Below, piece by piece: positions 8,355 to 50,506 of a stretch of 64,000 nucleotides of DNA. The stretch comes from Gammaproteobacteria bacterium (GTDB lineage Bacteria > Pseudomonadota > Gammaproteobacteria > SG8-11). Both the position numbers and the translations under genes were made by a program. The stretch spans positions 1,512-65,511 of the forward strand of contig JAHECY010000006.1 in assembly GCA_024641505.1 (NCBI GenBank), written 5' to 3'. The notes under the pieces are model-generated. The model did not search any database, was not told the origin of the DNA, and saw only the letters and a list, made by a program, of their open reading frames with translations. Within the stretch, counting starts at the first letter, position 1; every line of letters begins with the position of its first letter.

Positions 8355-9339
8355 GGCCGGGCTCCAGACATGTGCTAATGTCATCGGTGGTGCTGCAGGT
8401 GCGCAGCGCAACGCCGGCTTGTTTGCAACAAGCTTGCAGCACCCATTGCCGTTGCTGAAACAGTTCCTGGTACCGTTGTCGCTGCGTGTGATCCCGGGCA
8501 TCGATGCGCAACTCCTGCGCTACGTCGCCGGTATCGATCAGATAGGCACCGGTCGCGGGCAGACGCTGCTCCACCGGATCGAGTATCTGCTGCGCACGTA
8601 CCGTATGTCGGGCGGCAAGTTGCTGTAACAGCGGCGCGGCAAGTTGCGCGTCGAACGCGGCAAAGTCGCTGAGCAGTAACACGAAACTGCCGCCCGGCAT
8701 CCGATGCGCCAGGTGTCCCAGGATCGAATGCAGATGCGCGTGCGGCGCATCGAAGGCCAGCGGCGTACACGGCGCGATCAGCTGCGCCAGCAAGCCCTGG
8801 GTCAACTGCGCGCCGGCGGCCGGGGCATGCCACTGCGACTCCTGATTCAAAACGCAACCACCTACCGCCAACCCCAGGGACCGCGCGTATTGCAAATAGC
8901 ACACCGCGATTCGCGCCGCAAGCGTGACCTTGAGTTGCCGACGCGTGGCGAAGCGCATGGTGGGACCACGGTCCACCACCAGATACACCTGGGGTCGCCG
9001 CTCCTCCATGAACACCTTGGTGTACAGGGCACCGCTGCGCGCATACAAGCGCCAGTTCAACAAGCGTGGCTCGTCACCAGGTTGGTAGGGCCGATGTTCT
9101 TCAAATTCAAAGCCGCGACCTCGATAAATCGAGGCATGTTCGCCCGTCAAGGCGTGGCTGCTGTGCTGTTGAAAACTGAACAGGGACTCCGGCAACTGTT
9201 GGGTCACAAGCGCCAGACGTTGCAGTTCAGCGTCGTCCAGCAAGGGCCTATGCGTCGGCGCGGGCTTGCCGCCAAAACGCCGGCGATACCGGGTCCACCG
9301 CTCCAGTATCCTATGCGCCGGAGTCATGATGATGTTCAC
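8344..9339 (-). CDS. DUF58 family protein (VWA-like, MoxR partner)
   Basis: 331-aa ORF overlapping the moxR stop by 4 nt (ATGA). Canonical position downstream of MoxR. Conserved DUF58-type stretch (RGRGFEFEEHRPYQPGDEPRLLNWRLYARSGALYTKVF). Confidence 0.65.
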   Translation of the reverse strand: MNIIMTPAHRILERWTRYRRRFGGKPAPTHRPLLDDAELQRLALVTQQLPESLFSFQQHSSHALTGEHASIYRGRGFEFEEHRPYQPGDEPRLLNWRLYARSGALYTKVFMEERRPQVYLVVDRGPTMRFATRRQLKVTLAARIAVCYLQYARSLGLAVGGCVLNQESQWHAPAAGAQLTQGLLAQLIAPCTPLAFDAPHAHLHSILGHLAHRMPGGSFVLLLSDFAAFDAQLAAPLLQQLAARHTVRAQQILDPVEQRLPATGAYLIDTGDVAQELRIDARDHTQRQRYQELFQQRQWVLQACCKQAGVALRTCSTTDDISTCLEPGHGR

Positions 9340-10325
9340 GGCACGGGGATCGCATCCACCAGTCCTTTGATAAGATCATTCGCCGACAGTTGTTTGGCTT
9401 TGGCGGTAAAGCTGAGAATCATCCGGTGACGCAGCACATCGGCGGCGACATCGATGACATCATCGGGAATTACATAGGCACGGCCCTGTAAATAGGCATG
9501 GGCACTGGCGGCTCGGGCCAAGGCGAGCGTGGCTCGGGGCGAAGCACCGTAGTGGATATGGTCGCGCCAGTCGGGTAACCATTTTTCCGGATGCCGCGTG
9601 GCATTAACCAGGCTCACCATATAGCGTTTCACGCTCTCTTCGAGGTGAATCTCCGCGACTTCACGCCGGGCGGCCAACACGGTGGCCGGTTGCAGTTGGC
9701 TCTCCACCGCTTGTTGGTCCGCGCCGAAGTGTAAACGCCGGTCGCGTTCCAGAATTTGAAATTCCTCTTCTTCGCTGGGATAGTCGATCACCACATGCAG
9801 TAGAAAGCGATCCAGTTGCGCTTCCGGCAAGGGATAGGTACCCGCTTGCTCCAGGGGATTTTGCGTCGCCATCACCACGAACAGGTCCGGTAATCGATGG
9901 CTTTTCCCGGCGATGGTCACCTGCTGTTCCTCCATGGCTTCCAGCAATGCCGATTGCACTTTGGGCGGCGCACGGTTGATTTCGTCGGCGAGGATGATTT
10001 CCTTGAATAATGGGCCCTCGACAAAACGAAAATCCCCGGTCTTGGGATCGAAGACCTCACTGCCTGTAATGTCCGCGGGCATCAGATCCGGTGTGAACTG
10101 GATACGCTGAAATCCCGCGTGCACGCCGCTGGCTACCGCCTTTACCGCCGTGGTCTTGGCCAGGCCCGGCGCGCTCTCCAACAGTAAATGCCCGCCGGTC
10201 AGCAGGCCGATCATGATCCGATCCAGCAGCTGGTGTTGCCCGACAATGATACTTTCCAGATGACGGCGTAAAGTGAGAAATTCCGGTTGCGTGTGCATGG
10301 CTATGGCTCTGGGGATCAAGAACAT
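9336..10325 (-). CDS. MoxR-family AAA+ ATPase
   Basis: LLLESAPGLAKTT Walker A and the typical MoxR body (ILADEINRAPPKVQSALLEAMEEQQVTIAG). 329 aa. Confidence 0.85.
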   Translation of the reverse strand: MFLIPRAIAMHTQPEFLTLRRHLESIIVGQHQLLDRIMIGLLTGGHLLLESAPGLAKTTAVKAVASGVHAGFQRIQFTPDLMPADITGSEVFDPKTGDFRFVEGPLFKEIILADEINRAPPKVQSALLEAMEEQQVTIAGKSHRLPDLFVVMATQNPLEQAGTYPLPEAQLDRFLLHVVIDYPSEEEEFQILERDRRLHFGADQQAVESQLQPATVLAARREVAEIHLEESVKRYMVSLVNATRHPEKWLPDWRDHIHYGASPRATLALARAASAHAYLQGRAYVIPDDVIDVAADVLRHRMILSFTAKAKQLSANDLIKGLVDAIPVP

Positions 10326-10335
10326 AGATTAACTC

Positions 10336-10960
10336 AATTTAAGCTGTATGCGTAGGGTGCGAGACGGTGTAACAACCGCGGCTGAAAGGCGCTGCGCAAA
10401 GAATCGGCTTCATCACACCACTGAAGCGCCAGTATCGCTTGGTGCGTAATACGCACCCTACGTGCCACTTGCGCTTGGTTTGTGACGCCGATCAATGTTG
10501 TTACGCAACCCCATTTCCCGTCTGCGATAACGGTGGTATTCTCGATTGGCAAGTAAGATGGTATCAAATTAAAAAATTGTAGGGTGCGTATTACGCACCG
10601 TCTTTATGCTTTATCCAAAGGATTGCCTGGCTCCAAACAAAACACCTAGTGGGTAACAACCGATTGTAGGGTGCGTATTACGCACCGTCTTTTGCTATAT
10701 CCAAGAGATTGCCTGGCTCCAAACAAAACACCTAGTGGGTAACAACCGATTGTAGGGTGCGTATTACGCACCGTCTTTATGCTTTATCCAAAGGATTGCC
10801 TGGCTCCAAACAAAACACATAGTGGGTAACAGCCGATTGTAGGGTGCGTATTACGCACCGTCTTTTGCTATATCCAAGAGATTGCCTGGCTCCAAACAAA
10901 ACACATAGTGGGTAGCAACCGATTGTAGGGTGCGTATTACGCACCGGCTTTTGCTCTTTC
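10336..10960. repeat. REP (palindromic GTAGGGTGCGTAWTACGCACCCTAC) cluster, including a tandem array of five copies at about 86-87 bp spacing with alternating A/B sub-units
   Basis: Palindrome copies begin at about 10347 (partial), 10441, 10578, 10665, 10751, 10838 and 10924. Spacer variants ccgtctttatgctttatccaaaggattgcc and ccgtcttttgctatatccaagagattgcc alternate. Confidence 0.85.
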
Positions 10961-11251
10961 CAAGCGTTTGCTGCGCACCAATAAGAGACATGGTGCGCAA
11001 TACCTGCCCAGGGCACTTCCATTTAAACTGATTCTAACTATTCAATCGCGGTTTTATCGTTTTTTCCTACATCGACACCCAATCTTATCATTGCTCGTTA
11101 TTAACTCCCCGAGGTGGATAAATCCCCTCCTGAAAGTCTATGTAATTACCGTATTTCAGGGCTTCTCGACCCTTACTATTCTGGTAAACTCTCCAGGTCT
11201 TCGAGCGGTACCCAGATCGGTCACCGTTACGTTTTCCACAGGGGGGAAACC

Positions 11252-13253: not shown

Positions 13254-13664
13254 ATGCCATTGTTTACCTGGAGTAATGAATACAGCGTGGGCGTAGGTAC
13301 CATGGACAGCCACCACAAAACCCTGTTCGACATCATGAACAAGCTTCATGACGCCATGAAGCAGGGTCAGGCGGAAGACCGCATCGCCGCCACCATCCGC
13401 GAACTGGTGGACTACACTGTATATCACTTCGGTGAAGAAGAAAAAATCATGGAGCGTATCAACTATGCCGGTATCGGCGCGCAAAAACGCGAACATGTCG
13501 TATTTGTGGACAAAATGAACGAGTATAAAGCCAAGGCGGACAAGGGTCAGGCTATCTTCACCGTGGCGGAAGTCGCGGCGACCTCTGTGACATGGCTGCG
13601 GGAACACATTCTGGGCATGGACAAGAAATACGAAGAAACTATGAAGGCGCACGGGATCAAATGA
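13254..13664 (+). CDS. Bacteriohemerythrin (hemerythrin-like O2/iron-binding domain protein)
   Basis: 136 aa. MPLFTWSNEYSVGVGTMDSHHKTLFDIMN...HF.EEE...H motifs typical of single-domain bacterial hemerythrins. Good RBS (agaggag). Confidence 0.8.
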   Translation: MPLFTWSNEYSVGVGTMDSHHKTLFDIMNKLHDAMKQGQAEDRIAATIRELVDYTVYHFGEEEKIMERINYAGIGAQKREHVVFVDKMNEYKAKADKGQAIFTVAEVAATSVTWLREHILGMDKKYEETMKAHGIK

Positions 13665-13682: not shown

Positions 13683-13722
13683 ACCTCGGGGGGTGCGCAT
13701 CGCACCCCCCTTTTTTTTCCCC
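13683..13722 (+). terminator. Rho-independent terminator after hemerythrin gene
   Basis: ggggggtgcgcatcgcacccccc hairpin followed by a T-run (tttttttt). Confidence 0.6.
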
Positions 13723-14000
13723 CTCGGCAGTACGCAATCCCATTGCAGGTGCGCAGCGTCCCCGCCATTGGTGCTCCCCCCTCGATATTGCGGAATCACA
13801 TTTGGGATGCGCATCGCACCGCTTTTGTTGCGGCCCCTCGTTAGTGCGGAATCACATTCGGGGTGTGCATCGCCCACCCTTTAGTGCGCGCCCTCGACAG
13901 TGCGCACCTTGGGGGCGTATGACGCACCGATCTTTATCTGGTTTTGTCACCATCGAGAGCACATGAACGAAAAGCAAAAGCCGGTGCGTCATACGCACCC
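13683..14000. repeat. Cluster of about 5 degenerate REP-like palindromes (GGTGCG..CGCACC variants)
   Basis: ggtgcgcatcgcacc, gatgcgcatcgcacc, gtgtgcatcgcccacc, ggcgtatgacgcacc and ggtgcgtcatacgcaccctac lie in the convergent intergenic region. Confidence 0.6.
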
Positions 14001-28700: not shown

Positions 28701-31025
28701 ATGCTTGAACCTAATGAAAAGGAGAGTTTGTTGTCGGATGCGGCGCACACCGACGTTAGCGAAACGCCGGAATACACCGATGTTGCCGTCGATTTAGACA
28801 ACAATGATGTTCTAGAACTGCAGAATAATTTGCAGGCCACGATCAAGGAACTTGCCGATGCCATGGATGCGGAAAATATGCAGCGACAGATGGTATTGCA
28901 GGCTGAACAACGCGACCAGGCCGAGCGCGCAATTGATGTTGAAATGTCCCACCCGCTCGATTCCGTAGAACATACTCCAAGCGCCGATTTTGAAATCCAT
29001 GACGCAGTTACCGTTTCCGCGACATCGACATCGGGGGTTACCGATAACCTGTCGCTGGATGAACTGCTGGCGGCGTTGAATATCAGCACCCTACCGCGGC
29101 CCGACGCGGTTGACGACAGCACCACCGAGACCACAAACGACATGCCGACCCAGGTACCGCGCATCGAGAACCTGTGGCAGGAACTCGGGGAAATCTGGCC
29201 GGTAATAACGCACCATCCTGAGGTGGTAACCAACATCGAGGAATTGTGGAGCAGGCTCAAGGAGGCGCACCATACTGGCACGCTGGGCACCGAACTTTCC
29301 CAGTTGTATTCTAAATTGACCGACGACGATACCGCTAACCCAGCACCGACGACCGCGCCACTTCGCAACAGTGATGAAGTTGCGGATATAGTCAGCCGTA
29401 TTCTTGCCGGAGTAAAGACCCGGGATATCATCAACGACACCGGTCCAGATGCGTCTGTTGCAGCGCCTCTCGCGAAACAGGGTACCGAGGAATTCGACGT
29501 CGACAATTTCCTGCAACGCTATGCCATGGACGCCGAACCCGCCCCGGCGGCCACCGTCGTACCCAAGGTTACTGAAAATCGCCAGAAAAAACCCAACACC
29601 GGCAACAAACTCACGATCAGTGCTGACGAGCTGGCGATACTGGAAAATATTCTGGGCGACCGCCTGGACCGTAACGCCATTGGCGCACCGGCGCTTGACC
29701 ATGACGCTGACGAAGTAAATACCGGGGGACATCCGCATTCTGACTCGCGGGAGATTGTCTCCCAGCCAAAACCAAACGGCACCGACCCGGCACCCATAAA
29801 AGACGTGGAACAGCCGGCGCGGCACAGCCGGTCGACCCATAAGTCTCCGTCGCGCAAGGCACACAAGTCAAGCGCGACCCACGCGACACCGACATCACCG
29901 GTTCCGTACCAGCCGGCACATACAGTTGCCAGTGCCGACGTCTCGGCGCTGGATACCAATGAAACTGATGACGATGCTGATAAAAAGTCCTACTGGCTGC
30001 CGCGCGTCACGGCCGCACTGGTAATTGTCGGTATTGCCTGGCTGTGGTTAAGTAGCGGTTCCGAGCAGGACCTCGTCGCCACCCAGGATGCAACCCGGGA
30101 AACCCGCAACGGCATGTCGCCGACACAACTTGCGGAAAATGAAAATTCAAAAACCCTCGCGGAAAGTAAAGCCGAGTACCGCCGGGCTGCGGAACAAGAG
30201 CATGCGCGCGTCGTCAGCGCCGCTGCTGCCCGCAAGACAGTCCCGAACGACAACCGTCCGATGATGCCAGGGGCGGGCAATGACACTGAAGCCAAGCGGC
30301 CCAGGGAGCTCAGTACTACAGAAGTCGCCAGCCAAATCCCGGGTACCGCAGGCGGTACCGGTGCGCCATCTGGCGTCACTGGAGACCACGTGCAAGCCCC
30401 TCCGGCCGTACAAAGTCTCGCCACCGGCTCGGTGCCCGTCGTGCCCGCGAATTCTTCGGAGCTGACGCAAAATACCGCCTACAACACGCTCACCGAAACC
30501 TTGAACCTATCCACGCAGAACATTCAAAATCTGGTCGATGGTTCCCTGGATCGTTTGCGTACCAGCACCCAAAATGGTTTGCAGGATCTTTCCCAACGTG
30601 TCAATCGGCTGGAAGACGCTATTGGCAAATTACACGCCGCCATAGAGTCCCTGTTGCACCAGAATAATGAGGCGCGCGCCGACCAAAACCGGAGTTTATC
30701 AGCATTGGGAGAGCGACTTGATGGTTTGGAAACCGCGCAAAAAAAGGCCTTTAATGCCAGAATCGAACGCGACAAGGAAGGCGTGACCATCGTGCTGACG
30801 GAACCACGCGCTGGCCGCACCGGCGAAAGTGGCGCCGACGGTACCTATGATGTGATCGTGCACACCGTGGTCAAAGGCGACACCCTGTGGGATATCGCCG
30901 CCAAGTATATCAACGATCCGTTTCGTTATCCGGAACTGGCCAAACTGAGCAAAATCAAGAACCCGGACCGTATCTTCCCCGGAGACCGGGTGCGTATCGT
31001 CCGACGTTATGTCACTGAACCGTAA
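28701..31025 (+). CDS. Large acidic single-pass membrane protein with C-terminal periplasmic coiled coil + LysM domain (HubP/FimV-like, reversed domain order)
   Basis: 774 aa. The N-terminal roughly 430 aa is highly acidic, low complexity, and has no signal peptide. One TM (YWLPRVTAALVIVGIAWLWLSS) is preceded by KK/R. C-terminal LysM (YDVIVHTVVKGDTLWDIAAKYINDPFRYPELAKLSKIKNPDRIFPGDRVRI). The minus ORF 28679-29506 is an antisense shadow. Confidence 0.6.
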   Translation: MLEPNEKESLLSDAAHTDVSETPEYTDVAVDLDNNDVLELQNNLQATIKELADAMDAENMQRQMVLQAEQRDQAERAIDVEMSHPLDSVEHTPSADFEIHDAVTVSATSTSGVTDNLSLDELLAALNISTLPRPDAVDDSTTETTNDMPTQVPRIENLWQELGEIWPVITHHPEVVTNIEELWSRLKEAHHTGTLGTELSQLYSKLTDDDTANPAPTTAPLRNSDEVADIVSRILAGVKTRDIINDTGPDASVAAPLAKQGTEEFDVDNFLQRYAMDAEPAPAATVVPKVTENRQKKPNTGNKLTISADELAILENILGDRLDRNAIGAPALDHDADEVNTGGHPHSDSREIVSQPKPNGTDPAPIKDVEQPARHSRSTHKSPSRKAHKSSATHATPTSPVPYQPAHTVASADVSALDTNETDDDADKKSYWLPRVTAALVIVGIAWLWLSSGSEQDLVATQDATRETRNGMSPTQLAENENSKTLAESKAEYRRAAEQEHARVVSAAAARKTVPNDNRPMMPGAGNDTEAKRPRELSTTEVASQIPGTAGGTGAPSGVTGDHVQAPPAVQSLATGSVPVVPANSSELTQNTAYNTLTETLNLSTQNIQNLVDGSLDRLRTSTQNGLQDLSQRVNRLEDAIGKLHAAIESLLHQNNEARADQNRSLSALGERLDGLETAQKKAFNARIERDKEGVTIVLTEPRAGRTGESGADGTYDVIVHTVVKGDTLWDIAAKYINDPFRYPELAKLSKIKNPDRIFPGDRVRIVRRYVTEP

Positions 31026-31205
31026 GGTGCGTACTACGCACCCTACGCAGATGCGAGAGGGGTGCGAAAATGCTTATGAACCAACCGGAAGGGCCGTAAG
31101 GTGCGTACTACGCACCGTTTTGCTACGCACCATCTCGCCTTTTTAATGTAGCAGCGCCGATCAAGATCCAGATCTAAAACCGGTGCGTAATACGCACCCT
31201 ACAAA
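31022..31205. repeat. Three REP palindrome copies
   Basis: gtaaggtgcgtactacgcaccctac at 31022 overlaps the LysM gene stop. Further copies lie at about 31088 and 31183. Confidence 0.8.
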
Positions 31206-31270
31206 CCGTGCCGAACATCCGGCCCGTCCTTTGCATACATAACGCAGGATCAACAACTTATTTTACAATA

Positions 31271-31849
31271 ATGAAACAAAAGCTCCAGACCCGTCTTGTT
31301 AACTATTTCATGCTGATCGCCGTCGCCGCCATGCTTATTGGCGTGGAATTCTATTTTGAAATGAGCCGCACCGAGGTCACCAGCGAAATCTGCACAATCG
31401 CCGAACAACAGGCGGCCGGCGCTGACGGTGCCCTGCCCCTGGACAATTTACGCAATAAGATCGTGATCATGTTCGGGGTTTTGACCATTGTCGTGGCCAT
31501 TGTACTCACCATGTTCATCCGCAATATCACCGCTCCTTTACAAAAAATGGCGGATGTCGCGGCGCGCATCAACGAAGGTGATCTGAGCCTGAGCGTACCC
31601 ATCGAAACCCATGATGAAATCGGTCAGGTGGGCGATGCTATCAACGAACTCACCAGCAATTTGCAGGAAGTGGCCACCATGACCAGTACCACCGCCCAGG
31701 ATACCCTGGGTCAGATCGAACGTCTGCTGGAGGCCACACGCAAGGGTGACCAGATACCGGAAACACAAGCCAGGGAGATTCGCGCCAGTCTGCAATCACT
31801 GATTGAGTTTGTGGATTCCTTCAAACTGCTGAAAACGGATATCGCCTGA
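31271..31849 (+). CDS. Small membrane protein consisting of two TM helices and a HAMP domain, no recognisable output domain
   Basis: Start at MKQKLQTRLVNYFMLIAVAAMLIG. Second TM VIMFGVLTIVVAIVLTMFI. HAMP motif NITAPLQKMADVAARINEGDLSLSVPIETHDEIGQVGDAINELTSNL. Confidence 0.55.
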   Translation: MKQKLQTRLVNYFMLIAVAAMLIGVEFYFEMSRTEVTSEICTIAEQQAAGADGALPLDNLRNKIVIMFGVLTIVVAIVLTMFIRNITAPLQKMADVAARINEGDLSLSVPIETHDEIGQVGDAINELTSNLQEVATMTSTTAQDTLGQIERLLEATRKGDQIPETQAREIRASLQSLIEFVDSFKLLKTDIA

Positions 31850-31852
31850 ACC

Positions 31853-32608
31853 ATGGAAGCACTGGGCCTGATCATCGCCGGCGTCTGCATCGCGTCCGCC
31901 GCCATGGCCGTCGGTATTGGCGGCGGTATCTTATGGACGCCATTGCTGATCCTGGCTTACGGTTTAACACCTCAGGAAGCGGTAGCCACGTCGCTGATGA
32001 TCCAGGTGGTGGGCATGGGCAGCGGCACCCTGGCCTATATGAAGGCCAAACTCACCCAGGTAAAACTCAGCCTGGTGTTTTTCTGTGCCGCGCTACCCGG
32101 CGTCATTATCGGCGGCTTCCTGAGCGTGCATCTCTCCCAGGACGCCGTGCAAATGATGTTGGGCGTGATGGCCATGACCGTGGCGGTATTGTTCGTCGCC
32201 GGCCAGGATCAGTTCAGTGAAGGCGGCAATTACGCGCCGGACCGGCGCAATATCGGCAAGTTACTGCCGATTCCGGCATTCTTCGGTTTCATGATGGGCA
32301 CCCTGTCCGTGGGGATCGGCGAGTGGCTGGTGCCGGCGCTGCGCCAGCGCCTGCATCTGGAAATGCGCCAAGCCATCGGCACCGTGATCCCGGTAATGTT
32401 TCTGCTCGCCATCTGCGCCTCCCTGGTCCACTGGAGTCAATCGGACAGCCTGCACTTGAACTATTTCGCCTATGGCGGCATCGGCACCTTTGTCGGCGGC
32501 CAGATCGGGCCGCGCATTTCCCAACGCATTGACGAACGCATCTTGAAACAAAGCTTTATCTATCTGATGACCTTGATCGGCATACATATGATTTTTCAGG
32601 CGATCTGA
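31853..32608 (+). CDS. TauE/SafE (DUF81) family anion exporter membrane protein
   Basis: 251-aa polytopic protein with the typical internally duplicated 4-TM architecture and a GIGGG motif. Begins 4 nt after the preceding stop. Confidence 0.7.
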   Translation: MEALGLIIAGVCIASAAMAVGIGGGILWTPLLILAYGLTPQEAVATSLMIQVVGMGSGTLAYMKAKLTQVKLSLVFFCAALPGVIIGGFLSVHLSQDAVQMMLGVMAMTVAVLFVAGQDQFSEGGNYAPDRRNIGKLLPIPAFFGFMMGTLSVGIGEWLVPALRQRLHLEMRQAIGTVIPVMFLLAICASLVHWSQSDSLHLNYFAYGGIGTFVGGQIGPRISQRIDERILKQSFIYLMTLIGIHMIFQAI

Positions 32609-32745
32609 GCCGATTCCGACTTTCGCGCCCGTAAAACCCAAGGCAAAAGTTCAGCGCGGTGCGTAATACGCACCCTTATACGTCTTTGGTCGGCATACAT
32701 ATGATCTTACCGGTGATCTGAGTCGACCCCGACTTCCGGTCACGC
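32575..32745. repeat. REP copy flanked by a roughly 55-bp direct duplication of the tauE-like gene 3-prime end
   Basis: cggcatacatatgatttttcaggcgatctgagccgattccgactttcgcgcc appears again as cggcatacatatgatcttaccggtgatctgagtcgaccccgacttccggtcacg after the REP ggtgcgtaatacgcacc at about 32657. Confidence 0.8.
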
Positions 32746-33034
32746 TTCATCACTGGTAAAGAATCGATCCGGCGCGCCGATGAACTGATGTCCGGTGGCT
32801 AATGAAAGCCCCAATTGAATTTTCACTGAACACAGACCGCCGCACCCATGCTGAAAGCACTCTATCTCACCTGCACACGAACCGGTTTGACGCTGACCCT
32901 GCTGGGGCAGATGCTGTCCCTGTGCATGCGTGATGAAGAAGACTGCTACTGCCTGTTTGTCATCGCCGCGGCGTTGTTTATCAGCGGATTCCTGCTATTG
33001 GCTCTGGTTTGAAACCAGCGTGTGAAGCCCGCAC

Positions 33035-33793
33035 TCACGCCGGCGGTTGAATATCCAGCACATGAATCATACGCAAACGCGTTTTGTCAAACACACCGAT
33101 AAACCAGTGGTAGCGAGACCGCACGGGAATATAAACAAGTTTGTCCCGGTCACCCTCCAGACCGCGCAGATATTCCTGATAAGTCCGCATGTCGTCAGGT
33201 TTCTGCGCTAAATAACTGTCCATATCAATCGCGGCGGCAATGATCTTTCCGATGTTGCTGTCATTGATCGGACGGAAGTGCTCACTGAAAAGATACACCG
33301 GTTGACTGTTTTTAAGCGCTCTGACACGCAGCGCCTGTTCAGATACGGGATCTTTCGGCATTTCGAAATAAATCAGCGCGGGTTGCTCCCGGTCAAACGC
33401 CGCCAGCTCGGATGTCGTCAACCCGGCCTCCGTCAAAATCGAGGTACTGATGGGATGAAAGCTCTCATCGGCGAACACCACGGCGACCGGGCGCTCGTTG
33501 TATACAAAATAGGTACCGGCGGTCAGTGCCAGGGTTTGAAACAGGGCGATGGCGCTCATGTCGAACTTCAACCCGGGTTTACCCTGTTTGAACACCACCA
33601 GCGTGAGCAAAGGCCCCAATACCACATCGACGCCTGCGACGATGCGAATGCCCTGCCAACCGCCGTCGCTGGTGAAATACCCGTGCGGATACCAATGCAC
33701 CAGGATCATATAGAGCAATCCCAAGAAAATACACAAACTGAGGGCGAAATGAATTCCGAAGGCTTGCCAGCGATTGATATTTTTCAAATGCAT
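33035..33793 (-). CDS. Membrane protein (3 N-terminal TM helices + about 140-aa soluble domain), possibly type IV pilin accessory protein (FimB/TfpY/TfpZ-like)
   Basis: 252-aa ORF divergent from pilS. TM helices FGIHFALSLCIFLGLLYMIL, IVAGVDVVLGPLLTLVVF and AIALFQTLALTAGTYFVY. The assignment rests on context and architecture only. Confidence 0.4.
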   Translation of the reverse strand: MHLKNINRWQAFGIHFALSLCIFLGLLYMILVHWYPHGYFTSDGGWQGIRIVAGVDVVLGPLLTLVVFKQGKPGLKFDMSAIALFQTLALTAGTYFVYNERPVAVVFADESFHPISTSILTEAGLTTSELAAFDREQPALIYFEMPKDPVSEQALRVRALKNSQPVYLFSEHFRPINDSNIGKIIAAAIDMDSYLAQKPDDMRTYQEYLRGLEGDRDKLVYIPVRSRYHWFIGVFDKTRLRMIHVLDIQPPA

Positions 33794-33985
33794 ATAGACC
33801 TCGAGAAATCCGCAAATAACACACAGAAGTATCCATCAAAATATCGTACCGGTGATGAATTACTTAAGCACGGAAATATCCGGTATTTCTCCTGCCTCCA
33901 CGGCGACCATACACGCGTATTCCGCAATTTGTGTCCGGCTGAAAAACTGACTTATATTTTGGGAAATTATGCCGAAAAACTGTCC

Positions 33986-35617
33986 ATGAGCATTCTTTCC
34001 ACTGCATATCCCGATCATCCGGCGGATTCTATCGAGGCGTCCTACCCGGATCATATTCACACCTGGCGACCGTTGTTCTGGCTGAATATCTATCGTTTCG
34101 TCCTCAGTTTGTTCCTGGTCGGATACTTGCTAAGCAGCGGCGACGAATCCTATATCGGAAAAATGCTGCCGGATCTGGCCAAGCATACCAGTGTCATCTA
34201 TTTACTGTTCAGCAGTCTGACCTTTGTCACCATACGCATGATGCGCCCCGATTTCATCATCCAGGTACATATGCAGGTGATGGTGGACATCACTCTGCTC
34301 ACCCTGCTGATGCATGCCAGCGGCGGCATTCAAAGCGGCTTGGGCATGTTCATCAATATCGTGATTGCCGGTGGCGCCATCGTGGTCCCGGGGCGCAACG
34401 CCAACCTGTTCGCGTCCCTGGCGAGCCTGGCGTTACTCGCGGAACAAGCCTCCGCTTACTTCAGCAGTGAAGTGCCTACCAACTATCCGCAGGCGGGCAT
34501 TCTTGGGGTCAGCTTTTTCGCTACCGCCACCCTCGCCTATGTGCTGGCACGGCGCATTCGTGCCAGTGAGGCGCTGGCCAGTCAGCGGGGCGCCGATTTG
34601 GCCAATATGGCGGAACTCAACGAGCACATCATCCAACAAATGGATTCCGGGGTTATCGTTATCGATCATCGCCTGACAGTGCGTCACGCCAACCGCGCCG
34701 CCAGCCGCATGCTCGCCAAAAACAATATTCTTTACGGTCAAAAACTTATTAATATCGCACCGGAACTGGCAACCGCCTACCAGCAATGGCGTGTACACCA
34801 GCAACCCCAGAACCGGGATTTGCATGTCATGGAGAACGGACGCGAGCTGCACCCCCAATTCATTCTGCTGGGCAGCCATGACGAGTCGGGCATACTGATT
34901 TTCCTCGAGGACATCAGTGATACCTTGCATCAGGCACAGCAAATGAAACTTGCGTCCCTGGGCCGACTCACCGCCAGTATTGCCCATGAAATACGCAATC
35001 CCCTGGGCGCCATCAGCCATGCCGGTCAGTTGCTTGGCGAATCGACCGCGCTGCCGCCGGCTGATCAGCGCCTGGCGCAGATCATCCAAAATCATACACA
35101 GCGGGTCAACGTCATTATTGAGAACATACTGCAATTGAGTCGCCGGGATCATTTTGCGCCGCAGTCTATCGCGCTTATTCCATGGCTTGACAAATTCGTC
35201 GACGAATTCACCACCGACAACGATTTACCGGCCGACAGTATCCAAATTATCGGACATAGTTCGCTGACCATTGTCATGGATCCATCTCAATTGCATCAGG
35301 TCATCAACAATATCGCGAGCAACGCCTTGCGCTATTGCGTGCGCACACAGTCACCCTGGATAAAACTGCTGGCCGGTGTAATCGCGGAACGGGAAACTCC
35401 ATACCTGGATATTATTGATAATGGACCCGGCATCCCGGCGCATTTTCAGGCAAATATTTTCGAGCCGTTCTTTACCACTGAAAACACGGGCACCGGACTA
35501 GGCTTGTATATCAGCAAGGAATTGTGCGCCATCAACAAAGCCAAGTTGGCTTACTTTATCACCAAAGAGGGTGAAAGCTGCTTTCGCATCTACTTTTCCA
35601 ATCATCAGCATGTGTGA
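33986..35617 (+). CDS. pilS: Sensor histidine kinase PilS (6-TM, PAS, HisKA, HATPase)
   Basis: Start at MSILSTAY (in-frame internal ATG; the ORF-track 5-prime extension overlaps the divergent gene). Multi-TM N-terminus. H-box SIAHEIRNPLGAI. N/G boxes (IIDNGPGIP...GTGLGL). Immediately upstream of pilR. Confidence 0.85.
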   Translation: MSILSTAYPDHPADSIEASYPDHIHTWRPLFWLNIYRFVLSLFLVGYLLSSGDESYIGKMLPDLAKHTSVIYLLFSSLTFVTIRMMRPDFIIQVHMQVMVDITLLTLLMHASGGIQSGLGMFINIVIAGGAIVVPGRNANLFASLASLALLAEQASAYFSSEVPTNYPQAGILGVSFFATATLAYVLARRIRASEALASQRGADLANMAELNEHIIQQMDSGVIVIDHRLTVRHANRAASRMLAKNNILYGQKLINIAPELATAYQQWRVHQQPQNRDLHVMENGRELHPQFILLGSHDESGILIFLEDISDTLHQAQQMKLASLGRLTASIAHEIRNPLGAISHAGQLLGESTALPPADQRLAQIIQNHTQRVNVIIENILQLSRRDHFAPQSIALIPWLDKFVDEFTTDNDLPADSIQIIGHSSLTIVMDPSQLHQVINNIASNALRYCVRTQSPWIKLLAGVIAERETPYLDIIDNGPGIPAHFQANIFEPFFTTENTGTGLGLYISKELCAINKAKLAYFITKEGESCFRIYFSNHQHV

Positions 35618-35623
35618 GGCGCC

Positions 35624-37000
35624 ATGAACACCCCATTAACCCTGCTGGTGGACGATGAACCTGATTTGTGCGAACTGCTGTCGCTGACGCTGCAGCGTAT
35701 GAACATCAACTCCCGGGTCGCCCACAATATCGAACAGGCAAAACAATTACTCGCCGACGAAAAATTCGATTTGTGTCTCACCGACATGAGACTGCCCGAT
35801 GGCAATGGCATTGATCTAGTGCGGCATGTACAACATCGGTACAGCGATTTGCCGATCGCGGTGATTACCGCCCATGGCAATATGGAAGCGGCAGTCGAAG
35901 CGTTGAAATCGGGTGCTTTTGACTTTGTTTCCAAACCCGTGAATCTGCAGGTGCTGCGTAATCTGGTACAAACCGCCCTGCGCCTGACCCAAAAGTTCCC
36001 GGAAACGGACCGCCGTACCCGCGACATCTTAATCGGCGATTCCGCGCAGATGCAGCAATTGCGCGGCACCATTGCCAAATTGGCGCGCAGTCAGGCACCG
36101 GTGTATATCAGCGGTGAATCCGGTACCGGCAAGGAACTGGTAGCACGCATGCTGCACGAAAAAGGACCCCGCGCCGGCGGTCCGTTCATGCCGGTAAATT
36201 GTGGCGCGATCCCGGGGGAATTGATGGAAAGCGAATTTTTCGGGCACCGCAAGGGCAGCTTCACCGGTGCGCACAGCGACAAACAAGGTTTGTTCCAGGC
36301 GGCTCAGGGTGGCACCCTGTTTCTGGACGAGGTCGCGGATCTACCGCTCAGCATGCAGGTGAAACTGCTGCGTGTGATTCAGGAACGGGCGGTGCGTCCG
36401 ATCGGCGATGCCAAGGAATTGCCGATCGACGTGCGCATCCTGTGCGCCACCCATAAGCCGCTGTCAACTCTGGTGGCCCAGGGCGCGTTTCGGCAAGATC
36501 TTTACTATCGCCTGAATGTCATCGAAGTCCGGGTGCCTCCGCTGAATCAGCGCATCGAGGATTTGCAGGAACTGGTCCCTCATATCATCAAAAAACTGAC
36601 CGGTAACGCCGTCCCGCCATTGACCGTCGACCCCGCGGCACTGGTCAAACTTGGCACCTATGACTTTCCCGGCAATATCCGGGAATTGGAAAACATTCTG
36701 GAGCGCGCCAGTACGCTGTGCGAAAACAATATCATTCGGGAACAGGATCTGGACCTCGGCAGATCCTCTTCCACTCTGGCACCGGCGCCGAAAGCCGAGC
36801 GCGAACCCCTCGAATCCAAAACCCATACCCGCGGCATGACACCCGACGAAAACCTCGAAGAGTACCTGGAATCCGTGGAACGCAGCACCATACTCGAAGC
36901 GCTGGCGGCTACCGGTCAAAACAAGACAGCCGCCGCCCGCAAACTCGGCATTAGTTTTCGGGCCTTGCGTTACCGGTTAAAGAAGCTGGGGCTGGATTAG
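35624..37000 (+). CDS. pilR: Sigma-54-dependent response regulator PilR
   Basis: REC (LLVDDEPDLCELL...LCLTDMRLPDGNG). Sigma54 AAA+ domain (GESGTGKELVARMLH...GAFRQDLYYRLNV with the GAFTGA-like ESEFFGHRKGSFTGA motif). C-terminal Fis-type HTH. Confidence 0.9.
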   Translation: MNTPLTLLVDDEPDLCELLSLTLQRMNINSRVAHNIEQAKQLLADEKFDLCLTDMRLPDGNGIDLVRHVQHRYSDLPIAVITAHGNMEAAVEALKSGAFDFVSKPVNLQVLRNLVQTALRLTQKFPETDRRTRDILIGDSAQMQQLRGTIAKLARSQAPVYISGESGTGKELVARMLHEKGPRAGGPFMPVNCGAIPGELMESEFFGHRKGSFTGAHSDKQGLFQAAQGGTLFLDEVADLPLSMQVKLLRVIQERAVRPIGDAKELPIDVRILCATHKPLSTLVAQGAFRQDLYYRLNVIEVRVPPLNQRIEDLQELVPHIIKKLTGNAVPPLTVDPAALVKLGTYDFPGNIRELENILERASTLCENNIIREQDLDLGRSSSTLAPAPKAEREPLESKTHTRGMTPDENLEEYLESVERSTILEALAATGQNKTAAARKLGISFRALRYRLKKLGLD

Positions 37001-37097
37001 GTGACCTTATCCTACACCCGCGAGTGTCCATTCTGGTCACCTGACCATTTGTATCAGCGCTTTCCGTTATATGGATATTACGAATACTGCTCTCCCC

Positions 37098-37140
37098 CGG
37101 GTTCAGCACTTGCTGCAGTGCTTGGCTAAGTTTTTGTTTT
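37098..37140 (+). terminator. Probable rho-independent terminator downstream of pilR
   Basis: agcacttgctgcagtgct hairpin followed by tggctaagtttttgtttt. Confidence 0.5.
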
Positions 37141-37201
37141 ACATTCCATAGTTACCCGTTCCGGCAAGATTCTCAAGTTTCGTCGCCATGCAACCGATAC
37201 C

Positions 37202-37217
37202 TGGCACAACTACTGCA
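37202..37217 (+). promoter_or_regulatory. Sigma-54 (-24/-12) promoter candidate for pilin gene
   Basis: TGGCACaactaCTGCA matches the TGGCAC-N5-TTGCA consensus (GG and GC 10 nt apart). About 140 bp upstream of the first pilin ATG, with the sigma54 activator PilR encoded adjacent. Confidence 0.5.
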
Positions 37218-37357
37218 CTAAGCACAGCAAGGCAAGTTTCCTGGGCCTTGCTTCAAGGATAGATCGGTTAATGCAGCGCCTAAAACAGACCACTGGCAAG
37301 GTTACAGGAAACTTGATCCCCCTGATTCACAACAATGCTTTAGAAGAGGAGCTCCAA

Positions 37358-37840
37358 ATGAAGAATGTAAAAGGTTTTACCTTGATCGAATTGATGATCG
37401 TGGTCGCGATCATCGGTATCCTGGCAGCCATCGCCATCCCGGCTTACAACGGCTACATCGCACAAAGTAAAGTTTCCGGCATGATCGAAAACATGGAAAA
37501 CGGTTTCCGTTTAGCCAAAGCCGAAGCTGCCAAAATCGCCGCTGGCGGTGTGTGCGTCAGCGTCGTCAACCAAGCCAATGACAATGGTGGAGTTGCACTT
37601 GCTGGCAAACGCGCTATCGGTGACCAAACCGTAGACGCATATGCAGTTGGTGCCGTCGCCAGCCCCGGCCAGATCGCCATCACCGACGCCGGCAGCACCC
37701 TGCCGACCGCCGCTGACGACAACGGCTGCCCGGAACCCGGTGACACTGTTGTTGTAACGATGACCCCGCCTGCAGGTCTGGTAGCCGCTGCGTTCCCTGG
37801 TGGCGCCCTGCCTGCTGACAAGACCTTCGTGGCCGAGTAA
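37358..37840 (+). CDS. pilA: Type IV pilin (major pilin candidate, PilA-like)
   Basis: Class III leader MKNVKGF|[23 protein letters not shown] (Gly-1, Phe+1, Glu+5). RBS agaggag. Two Cys (GVCVSV, NGCPEP) allow a C-terminal disulfide loop. 160 aa. Confidence 0.85.
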
Positions 37841-37887
37841 GCGGTTGATAAGCACGGAGCAGTAGCACCACACCGTGCTGATTAGGA

Positions 37888-37922
37888 TAAAAGGGGCTGG
37901 TAAACACTAGCCCCTTTTTTTA
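37888..37922 (+). terminator. Rho-independent terminator after first pilin gene
   Basis: aaaggggctggtaaacactagcccctttttttt: a GC stem followed by a T-run. Confidence 0.65.
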
Positions 37923-37952
37923 TGTTCAAGTTCCATCATGTGAGCAGCGACT

Positions 37953-38390
37953 ATGGAGTCCAGACAAACAGGATTTACTCTCATAGAATTAATGATTGTG
38001 GTTGCAATCATTGGCATCCTCGCCTCGATCGCCATCCCAGCCTACAACGGCCATATTCGCCAGACCAAGATAGCTGCGCTGATCGAGCATCAGGCAAATG
38101 CGATCAAGATTATCAAAAGCGAAGCCGCGAAAATCGCCGCGGGCGCAAACGGGGCCGATGTTATCGTGCAACTGAACTTTGGCGACCGTAAAGCGGTGGG
38201 CGACACCAGCGTAGCCGCATTTGTCGCCGCGGCGCCCGGCGCCCCCGGCCAAATAGAAATCACGGGCATGACCGGAGCCGGTAATGTGCCTTCACCGGCA
38301 GATGCAATTTCCGTCACCATGATTCCCATAGCCGCCACTAACGCCGCGGATTACCCGGTGCCATTAAGCATTACTTTTTCGGTTGAGTAG
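37953..38390 (+). CDS. Type IV pilin paralogue (no cysteines)
   Basis: Leader MESRQTGF|[25 protein letters not shown]. 145 aa. No Cys residues. Confidence 0.8.
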
Positions 38391-38762
38391 TGGTAGCGGA
38401 TTGTGACGTAATACCCATAACGGTATTAATGTTGCAATAGAAACCCAATGACTGGCGCCATTCAAGGAGTCTGATTTTTGGTCGACAGTATAGCGAGGGT
38501 GACCCGCTGGGCACGATACCCGGAGTCTCCCGCGGCCAATGACCGCCTTATGTGGGAAGGCGCTTTAATCATCCCACAAGTTTTCTTCAGGTGGACAGGG
38601 AGTTGTCTGCCTTATCCAGGTCGCGCATCGCTACGGTATAAATGGGCGCTGCGGTCCGACACGACGGGTAGCGACGTGTCCGGCGCCGCTAGCAGCACCA
38701 GCCGTGCGCTACCATGAGCAGTTTTTCCGGCAATGCCGGTTCCGTAATATTCGGAGGTATAA

Positions 38763-39170
38763 ATGAAATACTCTATCACAGCAAAGCGTTCCACCGGTTT
38801 CACCCTGATCGAAATCATGATCGCCATGGCGGTGCTGGGCGTAATCGCGGCGATTGCGATTCCCGCCTACAGAGGTTATCTCGCCACCTCCCGGGAAACC
38901 GAAGGCTGGAATAACCTCAACACTTTAGCCATTGCCGAAGAAGAATTTTTCCTGGAAAACAGTACCTACTTTGTCGGTACGGACACCGCCACATTGGTGA
39001 CCAGCAGCGGCGGCCTGTGGAACCCCGCCGAAACCGTTGAAACGGATCGCGCCTTCGTCTATACGGTGGCTGCCGGAACCACGGGCGCCGCCACCAGCAG
39101 TTACAGCGCGACCGCCACCGGTAAGGGCGATAAAGTACCGGTGACCACGGTACTCACAAAAGGCAACTAA
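38763..39170 (+). CDS. Type IV pilin-like protein (third paralogue, no cysteines)
   Basis: Leader [13 protein letters not shown]|[26 protein letters not shown]. 135 aa. Thr/Ser-rich C-terminus. Confidence 0.75.
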
Positions 39171-47461: not shown

Positions 47462-47790
47462 GGGTGCATATTACGCACCGGCATTAAATCCAGAACAGCG
47501 CCTTCGTGTAATTAACAACACGGTGCGTAATACGCACCCTACGCCATGGTGCCGCGGCGTTGCTGGTATTTCTTAGCGAAACCGCAGCTCTTGCCCAAAC
47601 GAAGCCGGACTTCGCTCGAATTATAAACGCCGGTGCGTAATACGCACCCTACGCCATGGTGCCGCGGCGCTGCTGGTATTTCTTAGCGAAACCGCAGCTC
47701 TTGCCCAAACGAAGCCGGACTTCGCTCGAATTATAAACGCCGGTGCGTAATACGCACCCTACGCCATGGTGCCGTGGCACTGTTTGTATT
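47462..47790. repeat. REP copies plus two degenerate 110-bp tandem copies of the secA 3-prime terminus (stop codon + zinc-tail coding region)
   Basis: The units 47521-47630 and 47631-47740 each run REP - cta - cgccatggtgccgcggcg.... On the minus strand they read ...GKSCGFAKKYQQRRGTMA*, against the genuine SecA tail ...[17 protein letters not shown] at 47741-47850. An additional REP variant lies at 47462. Confidence 0.85.
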
Positions 47791-50506
47791 TCTTACCGGA
47801 ACCGCAGGGGCACGGCTCATTACGTCCCACTTTACGGCCGTCGCGCACGAAGGGTTGCGCATGCTGGTCACCACCGTGGGCGCCGGCTTGCGCGGCGGCC
47901 GGCGGGGTTTGCCCACTCGGCGTCGCATCGGGTTCACCTGCCATGGCGGAGGCATCCGCATGCTGATATTGCATCTTGATGCGTTGCCGACGCTGCTCTT
48001 CCACCGCCTGCACATCTTCTTCCGCCCGCACCTGCACCCGCGACACCACCTGGATCACATCACGCTTGAGGCGATCCAGCATGTTGCCGAACAGCTCAAA
48101 TGCCTCCCGCTTATACTCTTGCTTGGGATTCTTCTGCGCGTAACCGCGCAGGCCGATGCCCTGGCGCAGATAATCCATTTGTGCCAGATGATCCTTCCAC
48201 AGGGAATCCACCACCTGCAACATGACCGCCTTCTCAAAATGACGCATGGTCGCCTTGCCCGCCAGCGCCTCCTTGTGCTTGAACGCTTCCACCAGCTCCT
48301 CAAGCATCTTTGCGCGCAGCGTTTCCTCATGCAGGCTATGATCTTCTTCCAGCCACTTGCGCACCGGCATGCGCGTTGAAAATTCCACTTCCAGCGCATC
48401 TTCCAGGCCTTTCAGATCCCACTGTTCTTCCAGGCTGTTGCGGGGAATATAAAGATTGATGACGTTATTCACCACGTCCTGGCGAATATTGATAATCGTC
48501 TCCGAGATATCCTCGGACGCCATGAGTTCGTCGCGTTTTTCATAGATCGCCTTACGTTGATCATTGGCGACATCATCATATTCCAGCAATTGTTTACGCA
48601 TGTCGAAGTTGCGCCCCTCAACCTTGCGTTGCGCATTCTCGATGGCCTTGGTAACCCAGGGATGCTCGATCGCCTCGCCCTCCTGCATGCCCAGTTTCTG
48701 CATCATCGAGGACACGCGCTCCGACGCGAAGATGCGCATGAGGTTATCCTGCAGGGAAAGATAAAAGCGGCTGGAACCCGGATCGCCCTGACGACCGGAA
48801 CGGCCGCGCAACTGGTTGTCGACGCGCCTTGATTCATGGCGCTCGGTGCCGACCACATGCAACCCGCCAGCCTGAATCACCTGATCATGACGTTGCTGCC
48901 ATGCGGATTTAATCTCCGCCATCGCGCTGGCTTCCACGCTTTCCTGACGCGCCAACTCCGCATCCAGGCTGCCGCCGAGCACGATATCGGTACCGCGACC
49001 AGCCATGTTCGTAGCGATCGTCACCGCACCCGGACGCCCGGCATTAGCGACGATTTCGGCTTCCCGGGCGTGTTGCTTGGCATTGAGCACTTCATGCTTG
49101 ATTTTCTTCTTGTCGAGCAGGGAAGACAGGTACTCAGATACTTCGATGGAAACCGTACCTACCAGTACCGGCTGGCCACGACTTTGGCATTCGGTGATGT
49201 CCTCGATGATGGCGTCGTACTTTTCATTGGCGGTCAGATAGATCAGATCGCCTTGATCCTTTCTGGCGATCGGGCGGTTGGTGGGAATCACCACTACTTC
49301 CAGACCGTAGATTTGCTGGAACTCGAAGGCCTCGGTATCGGCGGTACCGGTCATGCCCGAAAGTTTTTTATAGAGACGAAAATAATTCTGGAAGGTAATC
49401 GACGCCAGCGTTTGGTTTTCCGCCTGCACGTCCAATCCTTCCTTGGCCTCTACCGCCTGATGCAAACCGTCGGACCAGCGCCGTCCCGGCATGGTGCGCC
49501 CGGTGAACTCGTCGACGATAATGACCTGCCCGTCCTTGACGATGTATTCCACGTTTTTTTGAAATAACGCGTGCGCGCGCAATCCGGCGTACAAATGGTG
49601 CATGAGGGTGATATTGGCGGGATCGTAAAGACTCTCCCCTTCGCCGATGAGTCCCGCCTGCTCCAGCATTTCCTCGGCTTTCTGGTGACCATCCTCGGTA
49701 AGGTAGACCTGGCGCGCTTTTTCATCGACGCTGAAGTCACCAGGCCCGTCTTCCACTTCCTGCTTGACGAGATTCGGTACCAGTACGTTGACTTTCTTAT
49801 ACAACTCTGAACTTTCGTCGGAGGCGCCGGAGATAATCAACGGTGTGCGTGCTTCATCGATCAGTATCGAGTCCACTTCATCGACCACGGCAAAATTCAG
49901 ACCACGCTGCACTTTGTCGGCAATACTGAACGCCATATTGTCGCGCAGATAATCGAAGCCATATTCGTTGTTGGTGCCGTAGGTGATATCGGTGGCATAG
50001 GCGGCGCGTTTTTCTTCCGTGGATTGGCCGGACAGAATCACACCCACGGTCATCCCCAGGAAATTATAGATCTTGCCCATCCACTCGGCGTCACGTCGCG
50101 CCAGGTAGTCGTTGACGGTGATGACATGCACACCCTTGCCGGACAAGGCGTTGAGATATGCCGCCAACGTCGCCACCAGGGTTTTACCTTCACCGGTCGC
50201 CATTTCGGAAATCTTGCCGCTGTGCAACACCATGCCGCCAATGAGCTGAACATCAAAATGGCGCATGCCGAGCACGCGTTTACCCGCCTCACGCACTACT
50301 GCAAACGCTTCCGGCAACAAATCATCCAAGGTCGCGCCTTGGGCGATACGTTCCCTAAACGCCACGCTCTTGGACTGCAACTGGGCATCATCCAGCGCGG
50401 CAATTTCCTGTTCCAAGGCATTAATGCGCTCGACATTCTTGTACATCTGTTTGATCAGCCGTTCGTTACGGCTGCCAAAAATCGTTTTCAGGGCTTTTTG
50501 CAGCAT
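47759..50506 (-). CDS. secA: Preprotein translocase ATPase SecA
   Basis: Start at [23 protein letters not shown] (ATG at 50506; the ORF-track extension to 50710 is upstream read-through). DEAD motor motifs. C-terminal zinc tail [14 protein letters not shown]. Confidence 0.92.

Follow-up and report, generated by a model that had tools for sequence, protein, structure and literature searches.

Downstream of a TauE/SafE transporter gene of an uncultured gammaproteobacterium, the last codons of the gene occur a second time on the far side of a REP sequence. This arrangement raises the question of whether it records the insertion of a REP with duplication of its target, or the copying of a REP together with the DNA next to it. 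We examined the locus within a window of 64,000 nucleotides, by which we mean the whole stretch of DNA that was analysed and to which all positions refer. The locus is made up of the following features.

31853..32608, plus strand: complete gene for a TauE/SafE (TSUP) family membrane transporter of 251 aa (Pfam PF01925, E = 4.5e-43).
32573..32625, plus strand: copy A, the functional gene tail (11 codons, LIGIHMIFQAI, and TGA) plus 17 nt of 3' flank.
32626..32685: segment X, the 60 nt between A and A', unique sequence apart from a REP.
32655..32680, minus strand: the REP copy in X, in the opposite orientation to the tauE gene.
32686..32738, plus strand: copy A', a decayed pseudo-tail (LVGIHMILPVI and a stop) followed by the 17-nt flank once more.
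32739..32847: unique spacer 3' of A', in which neither another REP nor another copy of X was detected.
32848..33012, plus strand: small ORF of 54 aa, hydrophobic (MLKALYLTCTRTGLTLTLLGQMLSL...), the right-hand limit of the intergenic region.

The match of the transporter to PF01925 spans profile positions 1-237 of 237, and copy A takes in the last 36 nt of its gene (11 codons and TGA) together with 17 nt past the stop. An earlier note on this DNA had claimed that about 55 bp of the TauE/SafE tail are duplicated across the REP. Our data confirm this claim with a length of 53 nt: A and A' start 113 nt apart and are identical without gaps at 44 of 53 bases (83%). The binomial probability of so many matches at a single offset is ~3e-17, and the alignment of the left with the right flank of the REP scores 30.5, against a null with a mean of 7.2 and a maximum of 13.5. 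Outside the 53 nt, local and global alignment revealed no similarity at either end (206/500 and 232/500 shuffles reach the same score). Moreover, locus L010 of an independent assembly (Logan SRR12825371) differs by 3 SNPs from window positions 31177-37398 and shows A-REP-A' in identical form; therefore, the duplication is not an assembly artefact.

Comparison with orthologues distinguishes the two copies. All TauE orthologues at 55-87% identity (87%, 76%, 71% and 55-63%) end in the motif ...L[IT]GIH[LM]IFQ[AS][IV] followed by the stop, and it is copy A that encodes this tail. A and A' differ at 9 positions, 5 of them in the former coding part; all 5 are specific to A' relative to the orthologues, 4 are non-synonymous, and the conserved F and Q are lost. 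Copy A is thus the functional copy and has stayed under selection, and A' is decayed. The two copies also have lineage-specific bases in common, GGCATACATATGAT, where the relative at 87% has GGCATCCACATGAT, and A' is thus a decayed duplicate that arose within the lineage of the window.

The relatives point to the same lineage. The loci L011/L012 (87% aa identity) and L001 (76%, UBA6920) have one gene tail, no REP, no duplicate and a shorter spacer, with ~62 nt (L001) and ~85 nt (L011), both counted by eye from the sequence, between the tauE stop and the small ORF, compared with 239 nt in the window. None of the fetched tauE orthologue loci (L001-L009 and L011-L013) contains this REP. The REP and the duplication are absent from the relatives and are therefore derived in the lineage of the window. 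The intergenic DNA of L011/L012 and L001 is too diverged for alignment with the window, and these loci therefore do not reveal where exactly the empty site would be. The search for closer TauE relatives returned only the near-identical P0001 (listed at 100%), the rest being at most 87% identical; a search with the SecA C-terminus gave nothing above 68%, and exact-protein look-ups (TauE, the small ORF, the HAMP protein, ArgJ and MoxR) gave the same Logan sample only, or nothing. An intermediate state in a close relative, or a polymorphism, was not found in the collections searched.

The small ORF that bounds the intergenic region is probably a real small membrane protein gene. By our own reading and translation, an ORF occupies the equivalent position 3' of tauE in L001 (~5123-5290) and L011 (~1769-1930), and the small ORF is a called gene in L010; its 54-aa product has no Pfam match. 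A functional RNA element was also considered for this region. The whole window gave no Rfam match, no promoter-like or terminator-like site was found in 32400-33100, and the predicted fold of 32560-32850 is unremarkable (z = -1.44); this reading was therefore dropped. Further downstream, a type IV pilin N-terminal methylation motif occurs in three adjacent ORFs (37271-39170), one of which has a ComP_DUS-like domain; these ORFs follow a PilS/PilR-like two-component pair (33.3-37.0 kb) suggested by the Pfam families of the matching L010 genes.

Segment X is little more than one REP, with 32 and 11 nt besides. It contains the perfect REP hairpin GGTGCGTAATACGCACC at 32658-32674; on the minus strand (32674..32658) this hairpin reads GGTGCGTATTACGCACC and matches the consensus perfectly (17/17), and the head that precedes it is degenerate, with TAAG in place of GTAG. 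The PWM score of this REP is 26.0 and the next best score in the spacer is -4.9. The 32-nt left part of X matched nothing elsewhere in the window or in the fetched loci except its identical copy in L010, and we accordingly rejected X as a shared mobile unit. A second copy of X after A' was sought by local alignment, which was not significant, and the best PWM match there, a candidate degenerate REP TTGGGGCTTTCATTAGCCACCGGA at ~32793-32816, was rejected (p = 0.14-0.18). Because the PWM search found no second REP after A', the structure is A-REP-A' and not A-REP-A-REP, equivalent to 1.47 units.

The 64-kb window has 16 copies of the hairpin family to which the REP in X belongs; 32 pattern matches were obtained, as both strands score for each copy, versus 0.23 expected by chance. 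The consensus is GTAGGGTGCGTATTACGCACCGG, frequently followed by CTTTTGC. A GTAG head is present in 11 of the 16 copies in the oriented listing, plus the copy at 31026 when read on the minus strand; the remaining heads are GTAA, GTTG, CTTG or TAAG, and the hairpin GGTGCGTATTACGCACC follows every head. All copies lie outside credible genes, the three that fall within ORFs being in spurious ORFs of 77-81 aa within an array at 10.5 kb. Head, hairpin, copy number and position outside genes identify the family as GTAG-type REPs. Contigs from many metagenome samples, 55 in all, also contain the exact REP 21-mer, frequently as pairs of hairpins ~38-48 nt apart. The defining partner of such a family is a single-copy gene, bracketed by inverted REPs, for a cognate RAYT (REP-associated tyrosine transposase). 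Among ten small ORFs scanned in the window, none has a Y1 transposase match, and no inverted REP pairs bracket a gene in the window, where inverted pairs are 59-142 nt apart. Two genes, secA and a LysM-domain gene, get their stop codon from a REP head: the secA stop TAG is the TAG of a GTAG head (47759-47763), and the stop TAA (31022-31025) of the LysM-domain gene (28701..31025) lies inside a GTAA-headed REP that has CTAC on its other side.

The window contains four local direct repeats of at least 50 nt, and all four are at REPs or REP-like palindromes; the next-best local repeats are 28-31 nt long with ~71% identity. Local direct duplications of adjacent unique DNA are thus strongly associated with REPs in this genome. 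Apart from the tauE locus, the repeats are the following.

47521..47850, minus strand: 3' end of secA, composed of tail and REP, 43 nt, pseudo-tail and REP, the same 43 nt, pseudo-tail and REP.
10576..10971, plus strand: head-to-tail array of ~4.6 units of REP and 63-nt spacer, period 86/87, with no gene tail involved.
13719-13904 (within 13690-13905): array with a 56-nt period, 3.3 units with 74-79% matches, built on a second palindrome type, GGGGTGCGCATCGCACCCC.

At the 3' end of secA, a period of 110 nt is repeated 2.6 times (47521-47807). The module, a 22-nt REP with ~45-48 nt of coding tail, occurs three times, and beyond it identity falls to the random level. Identity is 99% between the two pseudo-modules and ~87% between them and the real tail; according to our own translation, the pseudo-tails would encode CGFAKKYQQRRGTMA and a stop, with the zinc-ligand Cys and His (two ligands) gone. 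Units with tails that are ~13% different have an identical stretch of 34 nt across the REP and the adjoining tail, so a perfect hairpin is no sign of youth. The 43-nt stretches between the modules (47588-47630 and 47698-47740) match nothing else in the data, and they resemble the DNA that follows the last REP no more than expected by chance (499/1000 shuffles). Each holds a small palindrome of its own (CGAAG TCCGG CTTCG). For annotation, the tail-like sequences that follow the true stop codons of tauE and secA are pseudo-tails; they should be neither called as genes nor read as signs of a frameshift.

The array at 10.5 kb, with five REPs, has a super-unit of 173 nt repeated at 96-98% identity. 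It adjoins the 5' ends of two divergent genes and so lies in a promoter region and not at a 3' end; from their ORF translations, we take the flanking genes to be a MoxR-like ATPase (9336..10325, minus strand) and a HAMP/cyclase-like gene from 11114. The 56-nt-period array lies downstream of a hemerythrin gene (13254..13664). Its unit motif GGAATCACATTCGGGG resembles GGAACACATTCTGGG, which is located within the hemerythrin gene ~50 nt before the stop (20/2000 shuffles score equally), and the array may be another captured gene fragment.

In the secA, 10.5-kb and 56-nt arrays the palindrome lies within the repeated unit, which indicates tandem reiteration of modules and not target duplication round a single insert. 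The position of the REP inside the unit at secA and at 10.5 kb, with at least one recent event at 98-99% identity, further shows that this genome reiterates modules of REP plus flank. Local duplications in this genome stem mainly from head-to-tail modules of this kind, whose periods are ~86-113 nt.

Taken together, we give about even chances to the reading that the tauE locus is an old, decayed local duplication of a REP with its adjacent DNA, made by the same process as the secA and 10.5-kb arrays. A REP would have been present, or would newly have arrived, just 3' of tauE. A segment of ~113 nt, containing the last 36 nt of the gene, the 17-nt flank and the REP, would then have been copied in direct orientation through slippage of replication at the hairpin or a flap left unprocessed there, through unequal exchange, or through RAYT cleavage and rejoining. 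The upstream copy completes the gene and would have been kept by selection; the downstream copy would have been neutral and would have drifted by ~17%. Later, its second, REP-bearing part would have been lost by deletion or excision, leaving A-REP-A'. The data show the duplication itself, which copy is functional and which decayed, the association with REPs, the modular make-up of the secA and 10.5-kb loci and the absence of REP and duplicate from the relatives; we infer the original inclusion and later loss of the second REP, as well as which enzyme took part.

Several observations fit this module duplication. The secA period of 110 nt is similar to the 113 nt of the tauE locus, and the retention of the conserved tail in A with loss of conserved residues in A' is what is expected of an in-situ duplicate that drifts neutrally. 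Slippage, flap ligation and unequal exchange yield whole units and thus directly explain the recent events at secA and in the 10.5-kb array. Even at secA, slippage alone does not explain everything, since the older event there leaves the unique 43-nt stretch. Against module duplication, a simple tandem duplication yields two full units and tauE has 1.47, and a single insert flanked by duplicated target would look like X too. Neither a second REP nor a second X has left a trace after A', so an extra deletion step must be assumed. The negative RAYT scan of ten small ORFs and the failure to find an intermediate state in the collections searched also count against it. A loss of the second REP is plausible because sequencing reads have captured the excision of REPINs (PMC3116915), and the duplicate, at 17% divergence, is old enough for a deletion to have had time to occur.

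The first alternative, which we consider unlikely, is a target-site-like duplication: a REP-bearing piece of ~60 nt would have been inserted at a 53-nt staggered break in the 3' end of tauE, and fill-in would have duplicated the 53 nt. A single event suffices for this, and it predicts exactly the geometry A-X-A', with one REP in X, no second REP and an X that barely exceeds a REP in size; both the REP and the duplicate are, moreover, absent from the relatives. The earlier note had gone further, proposing a REP mechanism with a target-site-like duplication and counting three independent instances of it. The association of REPs with duplications is real and the secA and 10.5-kb loci do exist, but they do not have a target-site-like signature in common with tauE, as the REP is inside the repeated unit there and the A-REP-A' geometry is confined to tauE. 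A test for flanking direct repeats at REP copies, which that note had suggested for the whole genome, also went against the proposal in the window and in foreign contigs. Flank repeats above the null were found at none of the other single REPs of the window (10441, 13912, 13983, 31026, 31100, 31182 and 47463), and the scores at ~94 REP copies in the 55 foreign metagenome contigs were within the null. Therefore, no constant duplication accompanies REP insertion. In addition, the 32 non-REP nucleotides of X are common to no other REP copy, so X is not recognisable as a mobile unit; the relatives of RAYTs, IS200/IS605-type enzymes, act by single-strand cut and paste and make no sizeable target duplications (PMC2817692); and the mechanism of REP dissemination is still unresolved in the literature (PMC8266576).

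Two candidates that arose in this survey were rejected. The sole high flank score among the foreign contigs, in L050, comes from two adjacent REP doublets and not from a flank duplication, and a fourth gene-tail duplication at the LysM gene (REPs 31026 and 31100) was not significant (204/2000). By count, flank repeats occur at 3 of 6 REP loci in the window versus 0 of 55 foreign contigs (Fisher p = 0.0006), a difference inflated by the choice of window and by breaks in short-read assembly. Short-read contigs end at REPs in two cases: L010 starts at window position 31177, and L071, the ArgJ contig, ends at 47550 inside the secA array. Contigs that end exactly at REPs imply that the REP arrays of this organism will be systematically missing from, or collapsed in, metagenome assemblies, and any census is biased accordingly.

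A wider form of the target-site reading holds that REPs spread in this lineage via widely staggered breaks of ~50 nt with target-duplicating fill-in, A-REP-A' being the insertion footprint and the secA and 10.5-kb arrays secondary amplifications. We regard this as decidedly unlikely; if true, the locus would give a first signature, at the level of sequence, of the spread of RAYT-associated REPs. The tauE duplication itself is real, decayed and local, and it is not good evidence for a new insertion mechanism.

Another possibility is that two unrelated events are superimposed, a 53-nt tandem duplication A-A' first and the arrival of a REP-containing segment in or near the junction later. The perfect hairpin (17/17) beside copies that differ by 17% would be consistent with a younger REP. 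However, REP hairpins in this genome seem to be conserved or homogenised whatever their age, as the 34-nt identity at secA illustrates, and the GTAG head of the tauE REP is itself degenerate. The insertion would also have to strike the junction within a few bases, and we consider this sequence of events very unlikely.

It is highly improbable that DNA of a related strain, carrying a tauE tail and a REP, replaced the gene end through a homologous join in the gene and an illegitimate one downstream, leaving the tail of the recipient as A'. In that case the divergence between the copies would be that between strains and would date from the event itself, and both tauE and secA indeed have the functional tail with its REP upstream and the pseudo-tail downstream. 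Nevertheless, A' has the same lineage-specific bases as A where the 87% relative differs, and it is without residues that are invariant even in orthologues at 36-57%, which marks it as a decayed pseudo-sequence and not a working allele. The same accident would, moreover, need to recur at several REP loci. Finally, chance similarity or an assembly artefact has next to no probability, given the p value for 44/53 matches, the flank score far over its null and the identical structure in the independent assembly.

Target-site duplications of transposons have a short, fixed length for each element family and are found at every copy. The tauE locus resembles them in that a short repeated element lies between direct repeats of the local sequence. 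It differs in that the repeat is 53 nt long and present at one copy only, the other solitary REPs having none; a flanking repeat at most copies was seen neither among the REPs of the window nor in the 55 foreign contigs.

Module duplication has closer counterparts among known REP systems. In P. fluorescens SBW25, 16 clusters consist of tandem REPIN repeats "including the flanking sequences" (Bertels & Rainey 2011; PMC3116915, Fig. S7), which the authors credited to a "second mechanism" apart from REPIN transposition. The repeats in our window are similar in that a unit of unique flank plus palindromic repeat recurs in direct orientation at least twice per cluster, and the SBW25 clusters often have a short non-repeated stretch between units, as with the 43 nt at secA (PMC3116915). 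They differ from the inverted REP doublets of SBW25 in being single head-to-tail REPs, and their host is an uncultured gammaproteobacterium. At least two direct units with REP and flank are present at secA and at 10.5 kb; the second tauE unit, unlike those of the SBW25 clusters, is without a REP, and its membership of this class thus depends on the later loss proposed above. The head-to-tail arrangement of single REPs has been described as rare in most genomes.

As in the GTAG-tagged REP families of Di Nocera et al. 2013 (PMC3733652), the GTAG head adjoins a 7-bp stem with a short loop and the copies are extragenic; a solitary REP with a decayed coding tail beyond it, the arrangement at tauE, is not among the cases described in that work. 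Nunvar et al. 2010 (PMC2817692) reported rayt genes whose 3' ends had become enclosed between REPs and put forward a model of rolling-circle amplification primed by RAYT. The secA locus is like their BIMEs in that a gene 3' end and the sequence up to the downstream REP join the inter-REP segment. Their case concerns rayt genes and BIMEs of alternating REP orientation, whereas housekeeping genes and directly oriented REPs are involved here, and the rolling-circle model requires two directly repeated REPs (PMC2817692), which the tauE locus does not have.

For the question of how REPs and their arrays spread, loci in which unique coding sequence has been drawn into the repeat are useful because the functional copy provides the polarity and a rough clock of the event. 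The tauE locus is one clean example from an uncultured gammaproteobacterium and alone changes nothing that is known of REP biology. REP clusters reiterated with their flanks, captured gene 3' ends and REP-supplied stop codons have all been published already. The secA locus is close to these published descriptions, its unique inter-unit stretch included, and the tauE locus differs from them by its solitary REP between two copies of the flank.
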